Of a DNA stretch of 30,959 bases, positions 1 through 30,959 are shown piece by piece. A program made the position numbers and the translations under genes. The DNA comes from a virus. Its lineage: Duplodnaviria > Heunggongvirae > Uroviricota > Caudoviricetes. The DNA lies in IMG/VR virus record IMGVR_UViG_2531839474_000010, positions 1-30,959 of that record. One strand, written 5' to 3'. The notes under the pieces were generated by a model, which was given only the letters and a program-made list of their open reading frames with translations, was not told where the DNA came from and did not search any database. The stretch's first letter is position 1; each line of letters begins with the position of its first letter.

Positions 1-1254
1 ATGCTGGAACAAATGGGCATTGCCGCGAAGCAAGCCTCGTATAAATTAGCGCAACTCTCCAGCCGCGAAAAAAATCGCGTGCTGGAAAAAATCGCCGATG
101 AACTGGAAGCACAAAGCGAAATCATCCTCAACGCTAACGCCCAGGATGTTGCTGACGCGCGAGCCAATGGCCTTAGCGAAGCGATGCTTGACCGTCTGGC
201 ACTGACGCCCGCACGGCTGAAAGGCATTGCCGACGATGTACGTCAGGTGTGCAACCTCGCCGATCCGGTGGGGCAGGTAATCGATGGCGGCGTACTGGAC
301 AGCGGCCTGCGTCTTGAGCGTCGTCGCGTACCGCTGGGGGTTATTGGCGTGATTTATGAAGCGCGCCCGAACGTGACGGTTGATGTCGCTTCGCTGTGCC
401 TGAAAACCGGTAATGCGGTGATCCTGCGCGGTGGCAAAGAAACGTGTCGCACTAACGCTGCAACGGTGGCGGTGATTCAGGACGCCCTGAAATCCTGCGG
501 CTTACCGGCGGGTGCCGTGCAGGCGATTGATAATCCTGACCGTGCGCTGGTCAGTGAAATGCTGCGTATGGATAAATACATCGACATGCTGATCCCGCGT
601 GGTGGCGCTGGTTTGCATAAACTGTGCCGTGAACAGTCGACAATCCCGGTGATCACAGGTGGTATAGGCGTATGCCATATTTACGTTGATGAAAGTGTAG
701 AGATCGCTGAAGCATTAAAAGTGATCGTCAACGCGAAAACTCAGCGTCCGAGCACATGTAATACGGTTGAAACGTTGCTGGTGAATAAAAACATCGCCGA
801 TAGCTTCCTGCCCGCATTAAGCAAACAAATGGCGGAAAGCGGCGTGACATTACACGCAGATGCAGCTGCACTGGCGCAGTTGCAGGCAGGCCCTGCGAAG
901 GTGGTTGCTGTTAAAGCCGAAGAGTATGACGATGAGTTTCTGTCATTAGATTTGAACGTCAAAATCGTCAGCGATCTTGACGATGCCATCGCCCATATTC
1001 GTGAACACGGCACACAACACTCCGATGCGATCCTGACCCGCGATATGCGCAACGCCCAGCGTTTTGTTAACGAAGTGGATTCGTCCGCTGTTTACGTTAA
1101 CGCCTCTACGCGTTTTACCGACGGCGGCCAGTTTGGTCTGGGTGCGGAAGTGGCGGTAAGCACACAAAAACTCCACGCGCGTGGCCCAATGGGGCTGGAA
1201 GCACTGACCACTTACAAGTGGATCGGCATTGGTGATTACACCATTCGTGCGTAA
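1..1254 (+). CDS. proA: Gamma-glutamyl phosphate reductase, complete 417 aa
   Basis: Full-length ORF from ATG at 1 to stop at 1254; translation recognised from memory as enterobacterial ProA. Host gene. Confidence 0.93.
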
Positions 1255-1368
1255 ATAAAACCGGGTGATGCAAAAGTAGCCATTTGATTCACAAGGCCAT
1301 TGACGCATCGCCCGGTTAGTTTTAACCTTGTCCACCGTGATTCACGTTCGTGAACATGTCCTTTCAGG

Positions 1369-1444
1369 GCCGATATAGCTCAGTTGGTAGAGCAGCGCAT
1401 TCGTAATGCGAAGGTCGTAGGTTCGACTCCTATTATCGGCACCA
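1369..1444 (+). tRNA. thrW: tRNA-Thr, anticodon CGT
   Basis: 76-nt sequence GCCGATATAGCTCAGTTGGTAGAGCAGCGCATTCGTAATGCGAAGGTCGTAGGTTCGACTCCTATTATCGGCACCA with cloverleaf arms, anticodon loop CATTCGTAATG and 3' CCA. Known integration target for P22-type integrases. Confidence 0.93.
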
Positions 1445-1458
1445 TTAAAATCAATAAG

Positions 1459-2622
1459 TTACACATCATTAGTACCTTCCTTATTTTTTGACTGGGACAA
1501 ATTTGGGACCGATGGGTTCAGGATCGAGTCTATTTGCCGTGCGTGTTCGGTAAGGTGATTAGGTGCAAGGTGAGCATATCGACGAACCATTTCGATAGAC
1601 TCCCAGCCTCCCATTTCCTGTAACACTGACAACGGGACTCCGGCTTGAACCAGCCAACTTGCCCAGGTGTGTCTCAAGTCGTGAAATCTGAAATCATCAA
1701 TACCAGCCCGTCTCAGCGCCGCTTTCCAGGCTGTGTTTGCGTCATACCGCATCTTCCTTACTGTTGGCGCTTTCGTTCCGTCTGGTTTGGTACAGCTTTC
1801 CTTGTACACAAATACCCAACGGTGATGATTCCCGATTTGTTTTTTCAATACGCGACATGCAGTATCATTCAGCGCAACGCCAATTGCGCGGTTTGATTTA
1901 CTCTCTTCCGGGTTTATCCATGCCACCCGGCGCTGCATATCTATTTGTTGCCATTCAAGGTTGATGATGTTCGAGCGTCTTAAGCCTGTTGCCAGTGCAA
2001 ATTCAACAACAGACTTTAATGGCTCCGGACATTCATCAATCAGCCTTTGTGCTTCATGGGGCTCCAGCCAGCGGATCCGTTTATTCTTTGGTTGAGGCAC
2101 TTTAATAATTGGTGCCTTATCCAGCATTTTCCATTCACGCTCTGCGGCTCTTAGTAGGGCCTTTATAAATGAAAGATGCGTAGCCTTCGTTGCAACGGAC
2201 GCTGGTTTTGGCGTGTATTCTGGAACAGGTTTCCCTTTTTTTCTGCATGCTTCTGCCCTGAGTTTCCAGTTTTCCTCATGACGCCGGTTCGTCATTTTCT
2301 GCATTGCTGAATAAATTTTTGATTCAGTAATGTCTCTTAGTTGCATTCCTGCGAAATGTTGAAGCCAGAATCCGATCCGGCTTTTGTCATCGTCCAGTGA
2401 TTTTTTATGTGCTTTCTCTTCAAGCCACCTGACACACGCTTCCTCGAACGTTATATCAGGTATTTCACCAAGTTTGCTGACCCGCCATGCTTCAGCCTTT
2501 AGCTTGTCATGGAGTTCTGTCGCCTGCCTTTTGTCCTTTGTTCCAAGAGACTGTTTAAATCTTTTACCGTTCGGCAATGTGAAACTGGCGTACCATATTT
2601 CACCTCTGCGGAAGAGTGACAT
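1459..2622 (-). CDS. int: Tyrosine-type phage integrase, P22 Int-like, 387 aa
   Basis: 387-aa ORF beginning [33 protein letters not shown], with C-terminal HDLRHT and RY tyrosine-recombinase motifs; lies directly beside the tRNA. Confidence 0.93.
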
Positions 2623-2849
2623 TTTCTTTCCTCTGTTATGCCATCACCCGCGCTCACCTTGATAGTATGCAGCGGAGACTGAAGCGCCGCAATGCAGGCT
2701 TGTCGCGTTGTGAGGTAAGGAGATTTTGGTTTAGTGGGGTCTTTGCGTGTTGCCTGTAGGCGGCCTGTTCGTATCCAGTTGGTAGCGGTAGGTCTGGATA
2801 TCTTGAGAAACTGACAGGCCTCATCGAGTGTGAGGCTGTATGATTCCAT
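2499..2849 (-). CDS. xis: Excisionase
   Basis: ORF read from the internal ATG giving [31 protein letters not shown] (HTH-like); overlaps the int 5' end in another frame, as is usual for xis-int. The ORF track's upstream start at 2879 is possible. Confidence 0.65.
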
Positions 2850-3099
2850 GGTTACCTCTGCTTTTTGAACGCATGTCACGTAACTTCTTAATGTGTTCTG
2901 CCGTTTCGATCTCTTCTGCTATCCGATCTGCATCAGCTTTATTCACAGGTTCAAAGTCATGATTAAAGCGGAACATGCTGGCGATACATGTTCTGCCTTT
3001 TCGGATGTAGTGAACTTTGTTGTGGGTAGAACGCAGGATTTTGCAGGGAGTGCCGTGGTGGTCGACGTACCAGGTGTTAGGAAAAATGATTCTGAACAT
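2821..3099 (-). CDS. Hypothetical phage early protein, 92 aa
   Basis: ORF with GAGGTG 5 nt upstream of the ATG at 3099; same strand and position as the int-proximal early-left genes. No recognisable motif. Confidence 0.5.
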   Translation of the reverse strand: MFRIIFPNTWYVDHHGTPCKILRSTHNKVHYIRKGRTCIASMFRFNHDFEPVNKADADRIAEEIETAEHIKKLRDMRSKSRGNHGIIQPHTR

Positions 3100-3146
3100 T
3101 TTTACACCTCAGTTGGACGATGTTGAAATTTGCTGCTTTGAGGCCA

Positions 3147-3365
3147 TCACAATCCCCATTGTTTGTTCTTAAGTTCGATCTCCTCCTGGCAACTTGCACA
3201 AGTCCGACAACCCTGAACGGCCAGGCGTCTTCGTTCATCTATGGGATCGCCACACTCACAACAATGAGTGGCAGATATAGCCTGGTGGTTCAGACGACGC
3301 ATTTTTATTGCTGTATTGCGCTGTAATTCTTCGATTTCTGATGCTGAATCAATGATGTCTGCCAT
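3147..3365 (-). CDS. TraR/DksA-family C4 zinc-finger protein, 72 aa
   Basis: CxxC...CxxC arrangement (CCECGDPIDERRRLAVQGCRTCASC) in a 72-aa protein, typical of phage TraR-like proteins. Confidence 0.7.
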   Translation of the reverse strand: MADIIDSASEIEELQRNTAIKMRRLNHQAISATHCCECGDPIDERRRLAVQGCRTCASCQEEIELKNKQWGL

Positions 3366-3413
3366 CTTCCATTAATCCCTGAATTGTTGGTTAATACGCT
3401 TGAGGGTGAATGC

Positions 3414-3441
3414 GAATAATAAAAAAGGAGCCTGTAGCTCC
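3414..3441 (-). terminator. Weak candidate intrinsic terminator within the early-left operon
   Basis: Short GGAGC/GCTCC stem at 3427..3441 followed on the minus strand by a TTTTTTATTATT tract (plus-strand A-run 3414..3426). The stem is only 5 bp. Confidence 0.3.
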
Positions 3442-3463
3442 CTGATGATTTTGCTTTTCATGT

Positions 3464-3745
3464 TCATCGCTCCTTAAAGACGCCGTTTAACATGCCGATC
3501 GCCAGGCTTAAATGAGTCGGTGTGAATCCCATCAGCGTTACCGTTTCGCGGTGCTTCTTCAGTACGCTACGGCAAATGTCATCGACGTTTTTATCCGGAA
3601 ACTGCTGTCTGGCTTTTTTGATTTCAGAATTAGCCTGACGGGCAATGCTGCGAAGGGCGTTTTCCTGCTGAGGTGTCATTGAACAAGTCCCATGTCGGCA
3701 AGCATAAGCACACAGAATATGAAGCCCGCTGCCAGAAAAATGCAT
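3464..3745 (-). CDS. Hypothetical phage early protein; start ambiguous (TTG 3778, ATG 3745 or ATG 3679)
   Basis: ORF downstream of the methyltransferase on the same strand; no recognisable motif. Confidence 0.45.
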   Translation of the reverse strand: MHFSGSGLHILCAYACRHGTCSMTPQQENALRSIARQANSEIKKARQQFPDKNVDDICRSVLKKHRETVTLMGFTPTHLSLAIGMLNGVFKER

Positions 3746-3755
3746 TCCGTGGTTG

Positions 3756-4313
3756 TCATGCAGCCTCCCGACGGGCAAGAATCCTTGAGCCGAACGCCAT
3801 CAACTCTCCACGATCAACGGTCGTAAAGTGGCAGTGTGTACGGGGGTATGGGTGCCAGATAATGAGCATCGAGCCTTTATTATTTCCACTGACGGGTTTC
3901 CCGGTGAGTGGGTTAATAAATGCCAGTCGTCCTGCCGTGATGAATCTGACCTCACTGGCGGTTTGTATCGCTTCATGAAACCATCCGACAGATGTGTCAG
4001 CAGGCAATAACATTACACATCCCACACTACTGAATTTGTTTTCAGTGGCTGCCTTTTTCACAAAAGGGGAAATATTGCTGTATGGTGGATTCAACCAGAC
4101 ATAACCAGAGGCATATCCCATTGCTTCAGGCCATGAAGTGGTTAATGTGTTCTGCTCCTGTGAGATAAAAAGCCGACATAGTCGGTTTTTTTCGTTGGCT
4201 GCAGCATCAAGTTGAAAAACGAACTCTGCATTCAGCGCAGCAAAAATCTCTGGTGGTGTGCGCCAGCTGTCGCGATGTTCGGCAGGAGTATTGCTTCCGG
4301 TGAAATCAGTCAT
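3756..4313 (-). CDS. Phage-type DNA N6-adenine methyltransferase (Dam family), 185 aa
   Basis: Contains WLNPPYS (the NPPY motif IV of N6-adenine MTases) in a protein of the size of the small phage Dam family; no cognate restriction gene nearby. Confidence 0.8.
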   Translation of the reverse strand: MTDFTGSNTPAEHRDSWRTPPEIFAALNAEFVFQLDAAANEKNRLCRLFISQEQNTLTTSWPEAMGYASGYVWLNPPYSNISPFVKKAATENKFSSVGCVMLLPADTSVGWFHEAIQTASEVRFITAGRLAFINPLTGKPVSGNNKGSMLIIWHPYPRTHCHFTTVDRGELMAFGSRILARREAA

Positions 4314-4467
4314 ACAGCCCCCGTTTATTATTTATCTCCTCAGCCAGCCGCTGTGCTTTCAGTGGATTTCGGATAACAGAAAGGCCGGGAAATACCCAGC
4401 CTCGCTTTGTAACGGAGTAGACGAAAGTGATCGCGCCTACCCGGATATTATCGAGAGGATGCTTCAT
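4306..4467 (-). CDS. Small hypothetical protein, about 54 aa, not in the ORF track
   Basis: Minus-strand reading [26 protein letters not shown]...; its ATG overlaps the exo stop (ATGA) and its TGA overlaps the methyltransferase ATG, a translational-coupling arrangement at both ends; GGAG lies 8 nt upstream. Confidence 0.4.
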
Positions 4468-5144
4468 CGCCATTGCTCCCCAAATACAAAACCAATTTCA
4501 GCCAGTGCCTCGTCCATTTTTTCGATGAACTCCGGCACCATCTCGTCAAAACTCGCCATGTACTTTTCATCCCGCTCAATCACGACATAATGCAGGCCTT
4601 CACGCTTCATACGCGGGTCATAGTTGGCAAAGTACCAGGCATCTTTTCGTGTCACCCACATGCTGTACTGCACCTGGGCCATGTAAGCCGATTTTATGGC
4701 CTCGAAACCACCGAGCCGGAACTTCATGAAATCCCGTGAGGTAAACGGGCATTTCAGTTCAAGGCCATTGCCGTCACTGCATAAACCATCGGGAGAGCAG
4801 GCGGTGCGCATACTTTCGTCGCGATAGATGATCGGGGATTCAGTAACATTCACGCCGGAAGTGAACTCAAAGAGGGCTCTGGCGTCGTTCTCGTACTGTT
4901 TTCCCCAGGCCAGCGCCTTAGCGTTAACTTCCGGAGCCACACCGGTGCAAACCTCGGCAAGCAGGGTGTGGAAGTAGGACATTTTCATGTCAGGCCACTT
5001 CTTTCCTGAGCGGGGCTTTGCTATCACGTTGTGAACTTCTGAAGCGGTGATGACGCCGAGCCGTAATTTGTGCCATGCATCATCCCCCTGTTCGACAGCT
5101 CTCACATCGATCCCGGTACGCTGCAGGATAATGTCCGGTGTCAT
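4464..5144 (-). CDS. exo: Lambda-type exonuclease (Red-alpha), 226 aa
   Basis: Translation [40 protein letters not shown]... is near-identical to recalled lambda Exo; same length. Confidence 0.96.
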
Positions 5145-5926
5145 GCTGCCACCTTCTGCTCAGTGGCTTTCTGTTTCAGGAATCCAAGAGCTTTCACTGC
5201 TTCGGCCTGTGTCAGTTCTGACGATGCGCGAATGTCGCGGCGAAATATCTGGGAACAGAGCGGCAATAAGTCGTCATCCCATGTTTTATCCAGGGCAATC
5301 AGCAGAGTGTTAATCTCCTGCATGGTTTCATCGTTAACCGGAGTGATGTCGCGTTCCGGCTGACGTTCTGCAGTGTATGCGGTATTTTCGACAATGCGCT
5401 CGGCTTCATCCTTGTCATAGATACCAGCAAATCCGAAGGCCAGACGGGCACACTGAATCATGGCTTTATGACGTAACATCCGTTTGGGATGCGACTGCCA
5501 CGGTCCGGTGATTTCTCTGCCTTCGCGGGTTTTGAATGGTTCGCGGCGGCATTCATCCATCCACTCGGTAACGCAGATCGGATGATTACGGTCCTTGCGG
5601 TAAATCCGGCATGTACAGGATTCATTGTCCTGCTCAAAGTCCATGCCATCAAACTGCTGGTTTTCATTGATGATACGGGACCAGCCATCAACGCCCACCA
5701 CCGGAACGATGCCGTTCTGCTTGTCAGGGAAGGCGTAAATTTCTTTCGTCCACGGATTAAGGCCGTACTGGTTGGCGACGATCAACAATGCGATGAACTG
5801 CGCATCGCTGGCATCACCTTTAAATGCCGTCTGGCGAAGAGTGGTGATCAGTTCCTGTGGGTCGACAGAATCCATGCCGACACGTTCAGCCAGCTTCCCA
5901 GCCAGCGTTGCGAGTGCTGTACTCAT
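5141..5926 (-). CDS. bet: Lambda-type single-strand annealing protein Bet (Red-beta), 261 aa
   Basis: Translation [48 protein letters not shown]... matches recalled lambda Bet; overlaps the exo start as in lambda. Confidence 0.96.
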
Positions 5927-5931
5927 CCGTT

Positions 5932-6228
5932 TTATACCTCTGAATCAATATCAACCTGGTGGTGAGCAATGGTTTCAACCATGTACCGGATGTGTTCTGC
6001 CATGCGCTCCTGAAACTCAACATCGTCATCAAACGCACGGGTAATGGCTTTTTTGCTGGCCCCGTGGCGTTGCAAATGATCGATGCATAGCGATTCAAAC
6101 AGGTGCTGGGGCAGGCCTTTTTCCATGTCGTCTGCCAGTTCTGCCTCTTTCTCTTCACGGGCGATCTGCTGGTAGTGACGCGCCCAGCTCTGAGCCTCAA
6201 GACGATCCTGAATGTAATAAGCGTTCAT
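5932..6228 (-). CDS. gam: Gam, host RecBCD inhibitor, 98-aa short form
   Basis: Translation [47 protein letters not shown]... matches the lambda GamS region. Confidence 0.93.
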
Positions 6229-6303
6229 GGCTGAACTCCTGAAAATGGCTGTGAAAATATCGCCCGCGAAATGCCAGGCTGATTAGGAAAACAGGAAAGG
6301 GGA

Positions 6304-6714
6304 TTAGCGATTCAGGCCGTTACCGCGTCCGTCGAGAAAAACTTCCACGAGCAAATCACGGGTATAAGTGCGCTCGATGCCGCGATGCAGATAAAGCCGT
6401 CCGCGTAAATTAGCTGATGCAGTCCAGGTACCATCTTTGTGTTTGACCAGCATTCCTGGCATGACCGCACCTCGATTAACGGTCTGCGTTCCGTAATGTT
6501 GATGAACCATAAAAACTCCTGCCCGTAAGCTGGGCTGCTGAACATATAGAGACTTCTGCGCGTATTCAGGCGGTGGATGGCCGCCGGTTGTCATAACTAA
6601 GTCGCCTCGTTGAAGCGACTGAGGTATGAAGTGTTGAGTTGATTTCAGCTGGTCACACCGACGTTCACGCGTCCGCTTCACCCCTCGCACTCCCCGGAGC
6701 CTGCTGAAATTCAA
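6304..6714 (-). CDS. Hypothetical early-left protein; first gene downstream of the putative pL/OL; start uncertain (6714 or ATG at 6594)
   Basis: 136-aa ORF with an Arg-rich N-terminus ([15 protein letters not shown]) ending just upstream of gam. Function unknown. Confidence 0.4.
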
Positions 6715-6769
6715 GCTGCGGATCTAAGCGGTCATCGCAACGGTGAAGTTATAAATTTTGTGATACCAA

Positions 6770-6870
6770 CATCGATGCAATAGCATGACAATAGCAATGG
6801 CTATTGATGTAGTCAATAGCAATTAGTATTGATAATGTTTGATATACTTGTTCTGATTGATAATTAAATG
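6770..6870. promoter_or_regulatory. Putative left operator/promoter region (OL/pL)
   Basis: AT-rich intergenic DNA with three direct CAATAGCA copies (6778, 6789, 6814), the palindrome CAATAGC-AATG-GCTATTG (6789..6806) and three ATTGAT motifs (6802, 6828, 6856). The same motifs recur between cI and cro. Confidence 0.4.
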
Positions 6871-7059
6871 AATTTTTATAAAAAAGAGTATGAAGACTTA
6901 TTGGTGTGGCTGAAATTTGTACAGCTTTAATGTGCCTCGTGACAGAGGGGCATCGGGTTGTGGTGAGCTCGGTAGGTTGGCAGCAAATTTAATCGAATAT
7001 TGGTAGTCTGAGTTCTTATGTGTATTTTTTAGTCAGTTGCTAAATGATACATAAATGAC

Positions 7060-7096
7060 TTATTAGCCCCGCCATCGCTTTGTACGGGGCGTTTAT
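7060..7096 (-). terminator. Candidate intrinsic terminator directly after the SIR2-like gene, possibly bidirectional
   Basis: GC stem GCCCCG (7066..7071) / CGGGGC (7085..7090) followed on the plus strand by GTTTATTTAATTT; sits next to the stop of the 7097..8704 gene, separating it from the putative OL. Confidence 0.45.
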
Positions 7097-8704
7097 TTAA
7101 TTTATGTTTTCAACATTTCCATGAATCAACAAGTCGTAGGCAAGAAATAGTTTCCTATACTGGGTTTTTAAATTGTCAACGTCGCATGCCTTGAATTGAA
7201 CAAACGCTTCTTTTTTAACATAATCTTCAATCTCCTCTTTGGGGATATTTTTTATGTTCTTAATGACTATAGACAATTCTTTGTACTTTTTGAACGTTGC
7301 ATTCTTTATATCTTTGATGTTGGTGTAAATTTTATTTGCATTGATTTTATCTAAGGTGATTTTATTGAGCAAGTCGTCTAGTTTTCCGTGGCGTTCAATG
7401 CGTTGATTTAGTTTTAACACATATTTAGCTGGCAAACTTAACTCTTTCAAATTACATGAGGTTATAGTTTTTGAAAATGGAAGCTGTAATGAGTTTACTG
7501 AACCTAATATGAAATCTATGGCTAATTTATTAGATATTTCATTTTTATCAAATAAGTAGTCTTCAAGATAATTTATTTCTTTAACTTGTGTGAATACATA
7601 CTTTTTATCGCCTAGAGCAACAACTAAATTTTTTCCTTGTTTAACACTTTCTTCAAGTCTGTCTAAGTCAGAAGGTGAAACCAATAGAGTATCTAAGTGC
7701 CCTTTTTCACCCTCATTAATGATAAGTGTTTTAATGGCTCTTTGATACCTTAAAACATCATAAGGTGAGAGCCCTTCATCAACAGCACTGATCTCATCAT
7801 AGATCTGTTTATAGTTATCTGTTTTAACAGATGTATATGTAATTTGTAGCTGTTGATCGGTAATCTGTTTTGGTACTACTTCCTGTTCATTCTCTTTATA
7901 TTCAATCAAAATTATTCTTTCAGCTGATTTTCGACCATCTTCTCTAGGTAGTTGTGAGGAAAAATCAGAAAGAAGTTTCTTTACATTCCTGTCAGTTAAA
8001 GAATATCCAAGAAAAACTATTGGATTTTTAATCATGTTAGATAGTATCTTGGCACTAATGAGTATAGATTTGTTGTCATATTTTTCGTAATCATCTTTAT
8101 TTATGATTATTGAGTGTGGATCCTTTATATCACCATGGATTTTGTATAACTCACTCCATCCAATAGTATCTTCGAAAAAACCATTATTTCCAATATAGAG
8201 TTTTGGAGTTACATTTTGCTCTTGAAGTAAATTTTCTATGAAAGCATCATAATTTGTAGTGATGATTATCTTGGCCTTTTTTATTAATGTTTTAAATGAT
8301 GCTAATTCATCAAGATTTACATCCTTTCTGATTGTGTTATTAGAAAATCTTTGGCATATAGCGTATTTAAATGGTGAAATATCTTCACTAAAAACCCTCT
8401 TGGCATCTAGTCCATTTAATTTTAATTTGCCAGTCCTAAACAATAGATTGTAATCATTTTCAATTTTACTTGCTGCCTCTGTATAAATCTTATGATCGAT
8501 ATCATTATCACTGTTATTTTTATGTGATTCTTTTATTGTTAAAAGATAACTATAGAAATCATTTGTGGGATTTGTTATTTTCCAATACTCGTTTAATAGC
8601 TCTTCCCACGTTGGGTAGTTCTCTAAATATCTTTTTGAAATGCCTGAGCCAATAAAGACTATTGGGTAATTTTTGAATTCAAAATTTTTTTTTGACATAT
8701 CCAT
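7097..8704 (-). CDS. SIR2-family (SIR2_2 / ThsA-DSR-like NADase fold) protein with an uncharacterised C-terminal domain, 535 aa; candidate anti-phage effector
   Basis: Ordered motifs: Gly-rich loop VFIGSGIS (res 16-23), TTNYD (res 149-153; N151 codon at 8252..8254), KIHGD (H190 codon at 8135..8137), FLGYSLTD (res 231-238). Asn-to-His spacing is 39 residues, close to the roughly 40 recalled for ThsA/DSR2. Strongly AT-rich (about 30% GC by eye) against a roughly 50% phage background. Same strand as cI, immediately downstream. Confidence 0.75.
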   Translation of the reverse strand: MDMSKKNFEFKNYPIVFIGSGISKRYLENYPTWEELLNEYWKITNPTNDFYSYLLTIKESHKNNSDNDIDHKIYTEAASKIENDYNLLFRTGKLKLNGLDAKRVFSEDISPFKYAICQRFSNNTIRKDVNLDELASFKTLIKKAKIIITTNYDAFIENLLQEQNVTPKLYIGNNGFFEDTIGWSELYKIHGDIKDPHSIIINKDDYEKYDNKSILISAKILSNMIKNPIVFLGYSLTDRNVKKLLSDFSSQLPREDGRKSAERIILIEYKENEQEVVPKQITDQQLQITYTSVKTDNYKQIYDEISAVDEGLSPYDVLRYQRAIKTLIINEGEKGHLDTLLVSPSDLDRLEESVKQGKNLVVALGDKKYVFTQVKEINYLEDYLFDKNEISNKLAIDFILGSVNSLQLPFSKTITSCNLKELSLPAKYVLKLNQRIERHGKLDDLLNKITLDKINANKIYTNIKDIKNATFKKYKELSIVIKNIKNIPKEEIEDYVKKEAFVQFKACDVDNLKTQYRKLFLAYDLLIHGNVENIN

Positions 8705-8810
8705 ATACCTTAAGCTCTGCTTGAAACATCCATTCTATAAATTATGAGGATGTCAGCATGTCTCACCAAAACATCATCTGGTTATCTTGATGAAATCTGT
8801 CATTAATAAT

Positions 8811-26984: not shown

Positions 26985-28060
26985 ACGACAATGTCACGCT
27001 ACGGGTAAATGGCCGGGAGTGGAATGGCTGGACATCGGTGCGCATCGGTGCCGGTATTGAACGGCTGGCGCGGGATTTCAGTGTGGAGATCACTCGCCAG
27101 TGGCCGGGAGATGAGGGTATCACCACGCTTCAGCCGCGCATTAGAAACGGTTCAAAAGTGGAAGTGCTGATTGGTGATGAGCTGGTGATCACCGGCTGGG
27201 TGGAGGCGACTCCCGTTCGTTACGATGCCCGTTCGGTCAGCACCGGTATTGCCGGACGTAGTCTGACGGCTGACCTGATTGACTGTGCAGCCGAACCGAC
27301 ACAGTTTAACGGACGCTCGCTGGTGCAGATTGCGCAGGCGCTTGCTGCGCCTTTCGGCATTGAGGTGGTGAACAGCGGTGCGCCGTCGGGTGTTATTCCT
27401 GATGTTCAGCCTGATCACGGTGAAACGGTGATTGAGGTAATCAACAAAATACTCGGTCAGCAGCAGGCACTGGCTTACGACGACCCGCACGGCAGGCTGG
27501 TGATTGGCGGTATTGGCTCAACGCGGGCACATACCGCGCTGGTACTCGGGGAAAACATCCTTTCCTGCGATACGGAGAAGAGTATCCGGGAGCGATTTTC
27601 TGTTTACCAGGTGGCGGGGCAGCGTGCCGGGAACGACGATGATTTCGGTGAGGCCACCACCACCGCGCTGCGGGCCCGCACAGAGGACGCATTTATTGCC
27701 CGTTACCGTCCGATGTATATCAGGCAGACAGGGCAGGCTACGGGGGCAGGTTGTATTGTCCGTGCGGACTTTGAAGCCCGACAACGGGCGGCGCGGACGG
27801 ATGAAACCACCTATGTGGTGCAGGGCTGGCGACAGGGTAACGGTACGCTGTGGCAGCCCAACCAGCGGGTGATTGTCTTTGATCCGGTCTGTGGTTTCGA
27901 CAATACCGAACTGCTTGTTTCGGAAGTCACGTTTACTCAGGACCAGAACGGCACCCTGACGGAAATCCGTGTCGGCCCGCCTGATGCTTATCTGCCTGAA
28001 CCCGAAGCCCCCGGCGCGCGGAAAAAGAAAAAAGCCAGAGTACAGGAGGACCCGTTCTGA
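26981..28060 (+). CDS. Mu gpP-like baseplate hub / tail protein
   Basis: 359-aa ORF coupled to its neighbours in the Mu-like baseplate order. Confidence 0.8.
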   Translation: MNDNVTLRVNGREWNGWTSVRIGAGIERLARDFSVEITRQWPGDEGITTLQPRIRNGSKVEVLIGDELVITGWVEATPVRYDARSVSTGIAGRSLTADLIDCAAEPTQFNGRSLVQIAQALAAPFGIEVVNSGAPSGVIPDVQPDHGETVIEVINKILGQQQALAYDDPHGRLVIGGIGSTRAHTALVLGENILSCDTEKSIRERFSVYQVAGQRAGNDDDFGEATTTALRARTEDAFIARYRPMYIRQTGQATGAGCIVRADFEARQRAARTDETTYVVQGWRQGNGTLWQPNQRVIVFDPVCGFDNTELLVSEVTFTQDQNGTLTEIRVGPPDAYLPEPEAPGARKKKKARVQEDPF

Positions 28061-28608
28061 TGAGGACGATTGAAGCCATGCAGCGACAACTCCTCGGCCT
28101 GATTGGGCGGGCCGTGGTGAAAAGCATCAGTGCCGCCACGAAATGTCAGACCGTGGATGTGTCCCTGATTGCCGGTGAACCCAAAGCCGGGGTTGAACAT
28201 CTTGAACCCTACGGTTTTACCGCAAGGGCAAACAGCGGTGCGGAAGCGGTTGTGTTGTTTCCGGATGGCGACCGTTCTCATGCGGTGGTTGTTACGGTGT
28301 CGGACCGTCGCTACCGCCTGAAAGGGCTGCAGACGGGCGAGGTGGCTGTCTATGACGATCAGGGGCAGTCCGTGACGCTGACCCGGGAGGGGATCGTGGT
28401 GGACGGTGCAGGTAAAACGATCACGTTTCGCAATGCACCTGAAGCACGTTTTGAAATGGACCTGGAAGTGACCGGACAGGTGAAAGACCTGTGCGACTCC
28501 GGCGGCACCACCATGTCAGCGATGCGGCTTGCCTATAACGGGCATCGTCACAGAGAGAACGGTCAGGGCAGTAACACCGACAAACCGGATAAAGCGATGG
28601 AGGCATGA
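28060..28608 (+). CDS. Baseplate spike / assembly protein V-like (Mu gp45-like)
   Basis: 182-aa ORF in the conserved position; overlapping start and stop. Confidence 0.78.
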   Translation: MRTIEAMQRQLLGLIGRAVVKSISAATKCQTVDVSLIAGEPKAGVEHLEPYGFTARANSGAEAVVLFPDGDRSHAVVVTVSDRRYRLKGLQTGEVAVYDDQGQSVTLTREGIVVDGAGKTITFRNAPEARFEMDLEVTGQVKDLCDSGGTTMSAMRLAYNGHRHRENGQGSNTDKPDKAMEA

Positions 28609-29033
28609 TGGAACTGTGGCTGACGGTGAACGGTAAACGCACCTGCGCCAGCGCACCGCTGGATCCGCTGACCCGCTCCGTGGTGATTTCCCTGTTTACC
28701 TGGCGGCGGGCGGAGCCTGATGACAACGCCGACGTCCCGATGGGATGGTGGGGGGATACCTGGCCTGCGGTACAGAATGACCGTTACGGCTCCCGACTGT
28801 GGCTGCTTCAGCGCAGCAAACTGACCAATCAGCTGGTGCAGACGGTAAGGGGGTATATCCGCGAATGCCTGCAATGGATGATTGATGATGGCGTGGTGTC
28901 CCGTATTGATCTGGATATCCGCCGCACCGGGATTAATGAACTGGGTAACAGTATCACTCTCTGGCGTCGTGACGGACCGGTAATGATTTCTTTTGATGAT
29001 CTGTGGAGTGCGATAACGCATGGCGGACAGTGA
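28605..29033 (+). CDS. Mu gp46-like baseplate protein
   Basis: 142-aa ORF in the conserved position between the spike and baseplate-J genes. Confidence 0.75.
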   Translation: MMELWLTVNGKRTCASAPLDPLTRSVVISLFTWRRAEPDDNADVPMGWWGDTWPAVQNDRYGSRLWLLQRSKLTNQLVQTVRGYIRECLQWMIDDGVVSRIDLDIRRTGINELGNSITLWRRDGPVMISFDDLWSAITHGGQ

Positions 29034-30078
29034 ATTTCAGCGCCCGACGCTGGCAGAAAATATCAGTATGCTCCGTAACGATTTATTCGCCAGGCTGGAC
29101 GTCAGCGACACGCTCCGGCGCATGGATGAAGACGTGCGGGCAAAGGTGTATGCGGCGGCGCTGCATACGGTTTACGGTTACATCGATTATCTGGCAATGA
29201 ACATGCTGCCTGACCTGTGCGATGAGTCCTGGCTGGCGCGACATGCTGCGATGAAACGGTGTCCGCGCAAGGGGGCCACGGCTGCCAGCGGGTATATGCG
29301 CTGGGAAGGTGTCAGCGATGGCCTGAAGGTGACCGCCGGGAGTGTTATTCAGCGCGATGACCTGGTTCAGTACACGGCAACTGCCGATGCAACCAGCTCC
29401 GGTGGTGTCCTGCGCGTGCCGATCGCCTGCTCAAGTTCAGGCGCGGTCGGTAACGCTGACGACGGTACGTCATTAATCCTGGTCACGCCGGTGAATGGTC
29501 TGCCGTCTTCCGGTGTGGCTGACACCCTGACAGGCGGATTTGATACTGAAGATCTGGAAACGTGGCGCGCCCGCATCATTGAGCGGTATTACTGGACGCC
29601 GCAGGGCGGGGCTGACGTGGACTATGTCGTCTGGGCTAAAGAAGTGCCCGGCATTACCCGCGCATGGACATACCGTCACTGGATGGGAACGGGAACTGTC
29701 GGTGTGATGATTGCCAGCAGTGACCTGATTAATCCCATTCCGGAAGAATCAACGGAAACGGCGGCAAGACAACACATTGAGCCACTGGCCCCGGTGGCAG
29801 GCTCTGATTTGTATGTATTCAGGCCGGTGGCGCATAAAGTGGATTTTCATATCCGCGTGACGCCGGACACACCGGAAATACGGGCTGCCATCACCGCAGA
29901 GTTGCGTTCGTTCCTGCTGCGTGATGGTTATCCTCAGGGAGAACTGAAGGTATCGCGTATCAGTGAGGCGATTTCCGGTGCGAACGGGGAATACAGCCAT
30001 CAGTTGCTTGCCCCGGCGGACAATATCTCCATTGCAAAAAATGAACTGGCGGTTCTGGGGACGATTTCATGGACGTGA
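29020..30078 (+). CDS. Baseplate J-like protein (Mu gp47-like)
   Basis: 352-aa ORF; size and order within the baseplate cluster. Confidence 0.82.
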
Positions 30079-30653
30079 CAAACGATGATTACATCCGCCT
30101 GTTATCGGCACTGTTGCCGCCCGGTCCTGCATGGTCAGCCAGCGATCCGGCGATTGCCGGTGCGGCACCTTCATTAACCCGCGTTCATCAGCGTGCGGAT
30201 GCCCTGATGCGGGAGCTGGATCCGCGCACCACCACTGAACTGATAAACCGCTGGGAGCGTCTGTGCGGTCTGCCGGATGAATGTATTCCCGCAGGGACAC
30301 AGACCCTTCGCCAGCGTCAGCAACGGCTGGATGCGAAGGTTAATCTGGCGGGCGGCATCAATGAGGATTTTTACCTTGCACAGCTTGCTGCCCTGGGCAG
30401 ACCAGACGCCACTATCACGCGATACGATAAAAGCACGTTCACCTGCTCATCGGCCTGTACTGACGCAGTGAATGCGCCGGAATGGCGGTATTACTGGCAG
30501 GTCAACATGCCAGCCGCCACCAACACCACCTGGATGACATGTGGCGATCCCTGTGATTCCGCACTGCGTATCTGGGGCGACACCGTTGTCGAGTGCGTGC
30601 TTAACAAACTCTGCCCTTCGCATACCTACGTAATTTTTAAATATCCGGAGTAA
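30069..30653 (+). CDS. Mu gp48-like (DUF2313-like) baseplate / tail-fibre-proximal protein
   Basis: 194-aa ORF preceding the tail-fibre gene; family assigned from memory. Confidence 0.75.
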
Positions 30654-30656
30654 TCC

Positions 30657-30959
30657 ATGCATCGTATAGACACGAAAACCGCGCAGAAGGATAAGTTCGG
30701 CGCGGGTAAGAACGGTTTTACCCGTGGTAACCCCCAGACCGGCACACCTGCCACCGATCTGGATGATGACTACTTTGACATGTTGCAGGAAGAACTTTGT
30801 AGCGTGGTGGAGGCCTCCGGTGCCAGCCTGGAGAAAGGGCGGCATGACCAGATGCTTACCGCACTTCGTGCGCTGCTGTTAAGCCGCAAGAATCCGTTTG
30901 GCGATATCAAATCGGATGGCACTGTGCAAACGGCTCTCGAAAACCTTGGTTTGGGAGAA
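30657..30959 (+). CDS. Tail fibre protein, N-terminal 101 codons; runs off the window end
   Basis: Starts [48 protein letters not shown], the conserved N-terminal domain of enterobacterial prophage tail fibres; no stop before the window end. Confidence 0.78.

Follow-up and report, generated by a model that had tools for sequence, protein, structure and literature searches.

A window of 30,959 nucleotides (nt) from the IMG/VR virus record IMGVR_UViG_2531839474_000010 (Caudoviricetes) was analysed around an island rich in adenine and thymine (AT), which carries a gene of the SIR2 family and lies between the cI-type repressor gene and the leftward operon of a lambdoid prophage. The island is probably a swappable cargo cassette in the slot next to cI, in a prophage integrated at thrW, and its one cargo gene encodes a candidate SIR2 defence protein. 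A preliminary description of the window, made from its letters, had taken the sharp compositional boundary of the SIR2 gene as a sign of recent horizontal acquisition. The compositional break itself was borne out, whereas the dating was not, AT-richness being a maintained trait of the gene family and of the cargo in this slot that cannot date the acquisition. The features on which the argument depends, including the left operator and promoter (oL/pL), are as follows (GC, guanine plus cytosine content; aa, amino acids; z, standard score).

6511-6748: GC-rich pL leader, common to all compared phages; left recombination anchor
6749-7096: AT-rich non-coding stretch, contains oL/pL
6749..8905: mosaic (compositional) island, GC 0.31, comprising oL/pL, hairpin, SIR2 gene, spacer and the last ~95 nt of cI
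6788..6831, minus strand: predicted oL/pL, two palindromic operators overlapping a sigma-70-like promoter
7060..7092, minus strand: GC-rich hairpin directly 3' of the SIR2 stop codon; RNA fold -19.2 kcal/mol, z = -3.9, 0/200 shuffles as good
7097..8698, minus strand: SIR2-family gene; RefSeq-style start 8698 (533 aa, MSKKNF), first in-frame ATG 8704 (535 aa)
7100..7585, minus strand: region coding for the C-terminal all-helical domain (aa ~373-534), a putative sensor
8699..8810, minus strand: cI-SIR2 intergenic spacer, 112 nt
8811..9503, minus strand: cI-type repressor, 230 aa, with HTH_3 and Peptidase_S24 domains (Pfam); RefSeq WP_000712399.1 at the equivalent position

The open reading frame (ORF) 7097..8704 has a GC content of 0.297 and the originally delimited span 6715..8810 one of 0.313, as against 0.502 in the left flank (1..6714) and 0.545 in the right flank (8811..30959). 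Relative to the 1608-bp windows outside the island (n=25,681; mean 0.537, sd 0.035) the ORF stands at z = -6.9, and no other window of that length in the sequence falls below 0.458. In a 500-bp profile, GC passes from 0.52-0.53 (5750-6750) to 0.28-0.35 (6750-8750) and back to 0.44-0.50 (8750-10000), with sharp edges in the form of a fall from 0.60 to 0.29 at ~6700-6800 and a rise at ~8800-8900. The sliding-window comparison thus places the ORF ~20-25 points under its flanks, and not within a few percent of them. The codons AAA, AAT, ATA and TTA, which had been said to dominate the gene, are four of its top six codons and together account for 24.4% of its codons, compared with 4-12% in cI, gam, bet, exo, int, O, P and proA; GC at third codon positions (GC3) is 0.26 in the SIR2 gene and 0.46-0.62 in the flanking genes. 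Some details of the preliminary description required correction. The left part of the island (6749-6900) is the phage's own oL/pL control region and not cargo; cI itself has a GC of only 45.5%; and the island, delimited at first as 6715-8810, extends by homology from 6749 to ~8905, that is, ~95 nt into cI.

Evidence for exchange of the cargo comes from sister phages. Sixteen sequenced coliphages have gam/kil and cI flanks ~95-97% identical to those of the window, and the SIR2 gene is present in none of the 16, the sequenced coliphage records matching the flanks only. The slot is empty in PhiR34_1, and it holds one lipoprotein gene in PhiR26_1, genes annotated GevT/GevA in PhiR47_2, HipA/HipD in PhiR5_1, two hypothetical genes in PhiR30_1, and an ASCH gene with a hypothetical gene in 4A7. 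Near-identical flanks (~97%) therefore enclose either nothing or five other cargoes, in agreement with the earlier proposal of exchangeable cargo in a moron or defence slot. The other cargo in the coliphage slot has a GC of 35-40%, and rexAB of lambda 41% as compared to 51% in exo-bet-gam; morons and genes of mobile elements are typically AT-richer than their hosts. The PhiR records likely come from work by Brenes and Laub in 2025, which probably describes the cargo of these sister phages.

The recombination junctions could be located on both sides. In alignments with PhiR30_1, PhiR47_2, PhiR5_1 and 4A7, the window is collinear up to 6748 (GCAACGGTGAA) and divergent from 6749, the left anchor having the sequence GCGGTCATCGCAACGGTGAA. 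On the right, homology restarts at the cI stop codon, but finer comparison puts the junction inside cI, at ~8905: positions 8811-8910 are 11-18% different from six other cI alleles and the next 300 nt, in the conserved segment 8911-9210 of the cI C-terminal domain, only 1-5%, with 9-14 of the differences in 8811-8910 being A/T in the window and G/C in the other alleles. The cassette thus appears to have been recombined in via the conserved cI C-terminal domain, bringing its own AT-shifted cI tail, which fits a donor with a SIR2 gene already downstream of a homologous repressor. Movement of the cassette would accordingly occur by homologous recombination anchored in the pL leader upstream of kil (6748/6749) and in the cI C-terminal domain (~8905). 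The junction at ~8905 in cI accounts for the AT-shifted 3' end of cI and the separate copy of oL/pL that the cassette carries, and because the cargo separates oL from cI, an exchanged segment inevitably includes an oL of its own.

Within E. coli, the island was found as a unit in 166 of 5426 complete genomes (~3%), including O157:H7 and O55:H7 lineages, with one chromosomal copy in each; 162 of the 166 copies are at least 99% identical, and none of the 5426 genomes carries a fragment of 6749-8810 on its own. Prophages at argU (EC93), mlrA/yehV (O157:H7) and icd (A3024) share one identical protein, WP_000038831.1, and a near-identical protein is encoded at thrW in VTB97448v and in the window. 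Pairwise divergence among five copies is 0.2-0.5% across oL, SIR2, the spacer (100% identical in all five) and cI, and 1.0-2.6% in exo-bet, gam-kil, cro-cII and O. This low diversity of the block relative to its neighbourhood (0.2-0.5% vs 1-2.6%), and not its GC, points to recent spread of a young oL-SIR2-cI haplotype among the lambdoid prophages of E. coli, over at least four attachment sites. What spreads is the immunity block oL-SIR2-cI in its entirety, more than just the AT-rich segment, the low-diversity block taking in cI, itself outside the AT-rich island. Of the recent acquisition originally proposed, a recent spread within E. coli can thus be retained on the grounds of diversity, while GC fails as evidence. 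The SIR2-cI module is also kept in visibly decaying prophages, namely the mlrA prophage of O157:H7 ECP19-598 (L095), in which bet is split by IS1203 with a second IS1203 close by, and the thrW prophage of VTB97448v (L099), which breaks off behind a frameshifted ren, a gene of a type VI secretion system coming next.

In the oL/pL region, operator 1 is a perfect 18-bp palindrome, CAATAGCAATGGCTATTG (6789-6806), and operator 2 (6814-6831) is a copy of it with two mismatches; both overlap a pL-like promoter aimed at kil, with the -35 hexamer TTGACT at 6816 and an extended -10 hexamer TATTGT ending at 6788. A matching operator motif was observed in the oL regions of PhiR30_1 and 4A7, both of which have a ~97%-identical cI. 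The element at 6788..6831 can be recognised by its sequence as oL/pL, corresponding in position to oL1-3 of lambda between rexB and N, and the oL of the island carries the operator motif appropriate to its cI. A scan of the spacer 8699-8810 revealed no promoter or terminator consensus. Co-transcription of SIR2 with cI is the simplest reading of this absence of consensus signals between the two genes, and transcription from the maintenance promoter (PRM) would cause the SIR2 protein to be made in the lysogen. In the orthologous loci, the gene follows the repressor on one strand, at a distance of 30-191 nt.

The hairpin at 7060..7092 is a probable weak, non-canonical 3' end or terminator. The cassettes of Leclercia, Kosakonia and Yersinia (compared at L089 11652-11695, L090 11656-11700 and L092 11656-11700) have a canonical intrinsic terminator after the SIR2 ortholog, followed ~5 nt further on by a conserved ~45-nt element, CCCGTATnnTGGCGGAATATTTynCTTATnnnGnAGnGAAA, amid differing non-coding DNA; of this element the E. 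coli window retains no more than a degenerate remnant (GCCCCGTACAAAGCGATGGCGGGGC), and it lacks a canonical terminator. At the other end of the gene, two in-frame ATG codons are present at 8698-8704 (MDMSKK), of which RefSeq and all orthologs use 8698, the one better spaced from AAGG; the ORF finder, with 8704, has probably placed the start two codons too far upstream.

The SIR2 protein was matched by Pfam SIR2_2 (PF13289) over residues 146-285 with 84.1 bits against a gathering cutoff of 24.5 (expectation value, E=1.3e-23). It matches over its full length the PADLOC model PDC-S25, a single-gene system (E=1.3e-235, residues 1-528 to profile positions 1-526 of 528), and PHROG 2695, of function unknown (E=8e-203); no NCBIfam model matches it, and the C-terminal half has no Pfam domain. 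Invariant or near-invariant motifs in alignments of 20 and 92 homologs are G18-S-G20, T148-T-N150-Y-D152, K187-I-H189-G190 and G232-Y-S-L-x-D237; among the 92 homologs, G18/G20, N150, D152 and G190 are invariant and H189 is conserved in at least 90%. The TTNYD and HG motifs align to N133 and H171 of DSR2 in a profile search of PDB sequences, and the NAD-binding and catalytic site (Asn150, His189) is, as judged from these residues, intact. A homolog from Latilactobacillus sakei (P0108), otherwise well conserved, has Asp in place of the catalytic His189 (KIDGS vs KIHGD) and may be a catalytically altered variant.

The structure was predicted from the 92-sequence alignment (predicted local distance difference test, pLDDT, 87), this model replacing one from 20 sequences (pLDDT 74) with a poorly resolved active site. 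The closest structural relatives of the predicted fold are the defence NADases KomC, ThsA, AVAST5 and DSR2, and the fold resembles deacylase sirtuins less than it does defence SIR2s. Of these relatives, KomC, ThsA and AVAST5 form filaments. Variation within the protein is greatest in the C-terminal helical domain. Among close orthologs, identity is 90% in the segment 306-372 (~7589-7789), which lies between the SIR2 and helical domains, compared with 77% and 58% for the two domains themselves; it is also the least confident part of the model (pLDDT 46-77), and its conservation suggests a functionally important flexible or interface region. The possibility that the C-terminal domain is a sensor module shuffled among effectors was rejected, as phmmer against 1.84 billion representatives returned only proteins of ~520-545 aa with the same architecture, or fragments of them.

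The best-supported mechanism would be that of a DSR-like protein acting alone as sensor and effector and depleting NAD+ when a phage infects, of which domain identity, active site and placement are the parts established here. By analogy with the structural relatives, the C-terminal domain would recognise a component of a superinfecting phage, upon which the SIR2 domain would be activated, probably by oligomerisation, and hydrolyse NAD+; the loss of NAD+ would then abort the infection and protect the lysogen population together with the prophage. The claim that the gene is defence cargo, made in the preliminary description, accordingly gains a full-length match to a catalogued PADLOC candidate, PDC-S25, but that candidate belongs to a set described by its authors as 145 untested candidates. 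A role outside defence, as a sirtuin-type deacylase or an ADP-ribosyltransferase aiding lysogeny, or as a decaying passenger, seems unlikely. RefSeq does name one homolog 'SIR2 family NAD-dependent protein deacylase', and the gene is often found in degraded prophages. However, the ORF is intact, the catalytic residues are conserved in the 92 homologs, and named toxin-antitoxin or defence cargo fills the slot in sister phages. In addition, the nonsynonymous divergence (dN) of ~0.17 from enterobacterial orthologs, against a saturated proportion of synonymous differences (pS) of ~0.8, shows in this comparison that the gene is under purifying selection, with a ratio (dN/dS) well below 1.

The distribution of the family bears directly on the age of the AT-richness. 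Identity to the window protein decreases from 99% in E. coli to 72-75% in Leclercia, Kosakonia, Atlantibacter and Yersinia, 60-63% in Morganellaceae, 55% in Orbaceae and 41-48% in Firmicutes. In a neighbour-joining tree, the labelled Proteobacteria form one 33-tip clade that mirrors taxonomy and contains no labelled Firmicutes. The Leclercia, Kosakonia and Yersinia orthologs lie immediately downstream of a repressor gene, on the same strand, in prophages that are lambdoid but different (RecE/RecT-type or P22-like, with other integrases and other attachment sites). They have diverged from the E. coli gene to a pS of 0.79-0.80, which is saturated, yet keep a GC of 0.29-0.32 and a GC3 of 0.25-0.30 within flanks of 0.47-0.54. 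Over 28 loci, the GC of the gene is 24-40% (25-32% in most) and lies below that of the flanks in all 28, by 2-24 points; these include Streptococcus, Enterococcus, Staphylococcus and Lactococcus loci, in which the gene is below the local, already low GC as well. As low GC persists across saturated synonymous divergence and in all 28 loci, the sharp boundary cannot be read as a date, and the use of GC as a clock is largely refuted.

These observations render it quite unlikely that the gene is a recent import from a low-GC donor, such as a Firmicutes phage, that has not yet ameliorated to the composition of E. coli. Such an import would agree with the full-length relatives in phage records, which come only from Streptococcus and Lactococcus phages (36-44% identity), with the paraphyly of the Firmicutes sequences around the proteobacterial clade in the midpoint-rooted tree, which is compatible with a Firmicutes origin, and with a nearly invariant E. 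coli allele whose next homolog is only 75% identical. The nearest relatives, however, are enterobacterial and occupy the same cI-adjacent slot, their GC3 remains at 25-30% in backgrounds of 47-54% GC in spite of saturated synonymous sites, any transfer from Firmicutes must be ancient given a proteobacterial clade that mirrors host taxonomy, and the gene is AT-richer than its surroundings within the Firmicutes too.

It is very improbable that the low GC merely follows from an amino-acid composition rich in Lys, Asn, Ile, Tyr and Phe, with no bearing on history or expression, for although Phe, Tyr, Met, Ile, Asn and Lys make up 41% of the protein (20-29% in neighbouring proteins), Gly, Ala, Arg and Pro 12% (21-31%), and GC at the first and second codon positions is 0.385 and 0.247, synonymous choice is equally biased (0.262 at the third position; ATA 41% of Ile, TTA 39% of Leu and AGA/AGG 80% of Arg codons) and the non-coding parts of the island are AT-rich too (0.33-0.37).

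The island is thus better seen as exchangeable cargo whose AT-richness and rare codons are a long-maintained property of the family and of the cargo in the slot, and not the residue of a recent import. ATA and AGA/AGG are rare codons in E. coli, and AT-rich DNA in enterobacteria is a target of silencing by H-NS. A more far-reaching proposal can be offered only tentatively and is doubtful: that the proteins constitute a distinct single-gene abortive-infection family, combining a defence-type SIR2 NADase with a private helical sensor and kept in the lysogeny modules of temperate phages of Firmicutes and Enterobacterales (typically in the repressor operon), in which AT-richness and rare-codon load have been selectively maintained over saturating divergence in ~50% GC hosts to keep the expression of a toxic enzyme low, by way of slow translation or silencing of the H-NS type.

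In phages of Gram-positive bacteria, the homologs, still annotated as hypothetical, are found in the lysogeny module or at a prophage end. The order is repressor-SIR2-integrase in Streptococcus phage SVep1, repressor-2 genes-SIR2-integrase in Javan227, and lysin-SIR2-integrase in Lactococcus phage BK5-T (L008 2965-4575, ORF30), where the gene has its own annotated promoter and terminators. A universal linkage to the repressor was considered and rejected: it holds in 5/5 enterobacterial and several Streptococcus loci, other Firmicutes loci having unrelated neighbours, for example SPOUT methyltransferase, amidase or GNAT genes. In distant loci, phmmer with few repressor and integrase queries lacked the sensitivity for scoring synteny. 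On plasmids, only distant SIR2 matches at 40% identity or less were detected.

The prophage lies at thrW, as originally stated: a tRNA-Thr(CGT) gene at 1369-1444, which is thrW, adjoins proA and the integrase gene. The genes named earlier (the SIR2_2 domain, exo/bet/gam and the cI-type S24 repressor) were confirmed by profile matches. The order on the minus strand is int, Dam, exo, bet, gam, kil, leader, non-coding stretch, SIR2, spacer and cI, with cro-like, cII-like (YdaS/YdaT), O and P genes divergent from cI. Genes of the leftward arm are placed as follows.

1459-2622, minus strand: int
3756-4313, minus strand: Dam
5932-6228, minus strand: gam
6304..6510, minus strand: kil (FtsZ inhibitor), first gene of the leftward operon; NCBIfam and PHROG kil matches, RefSeq annotation

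The int-proximal region 1750-3250 has an AT skew of -0.20 to -0.30, which is strongly negative, and a GC (0.45-0.47) somewhat low relative to the other parts of the prophage; it contains several small minus-strand ORFs. A put-like antiterminator RNA was considered for the pL leader because no N gene is present between pL and kil, and was rejected, the fold of 6511-6785 having z = -0.99 and Rfam giving no match in 6000-10000 at E<=1. An IS3-family insertion element (orfA 12153-12479, orfB 12479-13366) directly follows the lambda-P-like gene, and 13719-26984 encodes terminase, portal, protease, capsid, a contractile tail sheath (21419-22915), a tape measure and a DNA_circ_N protein. A nin region, a Q antiterminator and a lysis cassette are all absent between the IS3 element and the terminase. 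Either the prophage has undergone rearrangement or deletion at the insertion element, in which case it is possibly defective, or it is a hybrid with lambdoid early and myovirus late genes.

Several points weigh against the interpretation of the island given here. The prophage appears to be rearranged by the IS3 element, which makes expression of SIR2 from this window uncertain, and co-transcription with cI was read from absent consensus signals; the hairpin has no U-tract. The repressor is not a constant neighbour of the gene, exceptions being several Firmicutes loci and the lysin-SIR2-integrase order of BK5-T. Mutational bias in the pool of mobile genes, instead of selection, could account for the maintained AT-richness. 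NADase activity, the trigger and abortive infection would follow from relatives that share only 13-18% identity, and the role of sensor is a guess, as structural comparison of the C-terminal domain gave nothing informative and no fusion of it to another effector was found. The literature yielded no experimental test of PDC-S25, of WP_000038831 or of this SIR2 protein but only catalogue mentions, the sole other mention of PDC-S25 found being its listing in an O157:H7 strain.

The analysis also holds a caution for genome scanning, since a sharp GC drop at a prophage cargo slot marks exchangeable cargo reliably but does not date its acquisition. It delimits a common candidate defence gene with defined catalytic residues, and the exact junctions show how cargo and oL swap between lambdoid phages. 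The repressor-SIR2 linkage across phages of Gram-negative and Gram-positive bacteria could guide functional work. As ordinary prophage cargo, the gene does not overturn the current understanding of prophage-encoded defence.

Among the known systems, the placement most closely recalls rexA-rexB of lambda. The order cI, cargo, 3' hairpin and oL/pL gives the SIR2 gene the position of rexAB (lambda cI-rexA-rexB-oL-N), directly downstream of cI, on the same strand and before oL/pL, and the cargo shows presence/absence polymorphism, including an empty slot. Both have a lower GC than their flanks, a presumed expression in the lysogen and a slot that is variable in sister phages. Unlike rexAB, the cargo is a single gene with a SIR2 enzyme domain and a much deeper GC dip (30%), and no match to RexA or RexB was found in Pfam, PADLOC, PHROGs or NCBIfam. 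DSR2 of Bacillus subtilis likewise combines, in one chain, an N-terminal SIR2 NADase domain and a helical region after it; it gave the best PDB sequence match (E=8e-15, N133/H171 to N150/H189) and the top Foldseek match. It differs in having ~1000 aa as against 533-535, only the SIR2 core (residues 146-245) aligning at 12-18% identity, and in a C-terminal domain unrelated by sequence, DSR2 sensing the tail tube protein; none of the PADLOC DSR models matches the SIR2 protein at E<=0.01.

The Thoeris ThsA model matches only the SIR2 part (profile positions 106-218 of 478). Signalling nucleotides that a partner makes activate ThsA and KomC, whereas the SIR2 protein, unlike the Thoeris and Kongming effectors, has no SLOG domain and no ThsB/TIR or KomA/B partner, its neighbours being cI and oL/pL. 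No HerA, ThsB or Kom genes lie beside it; in particular, there is no ORF for a HerA-type ATPase as in SIR2-HerA (Nezha/GAO_19), the flanks consisting of cI (8811-9503) and the non-coding stretch 6511-7096. The full-length profile matches are to PDC-S25 and PHROG 2695, catalogue entries that have no assigned function and do not include the cI linkage, the slot or the compositional behaviour noted here. On the basis of these matches, the SIR2 protein is assigned to the candidate family PDC-S25, and not to DSR2, Thoeris or SIR2-HerA.

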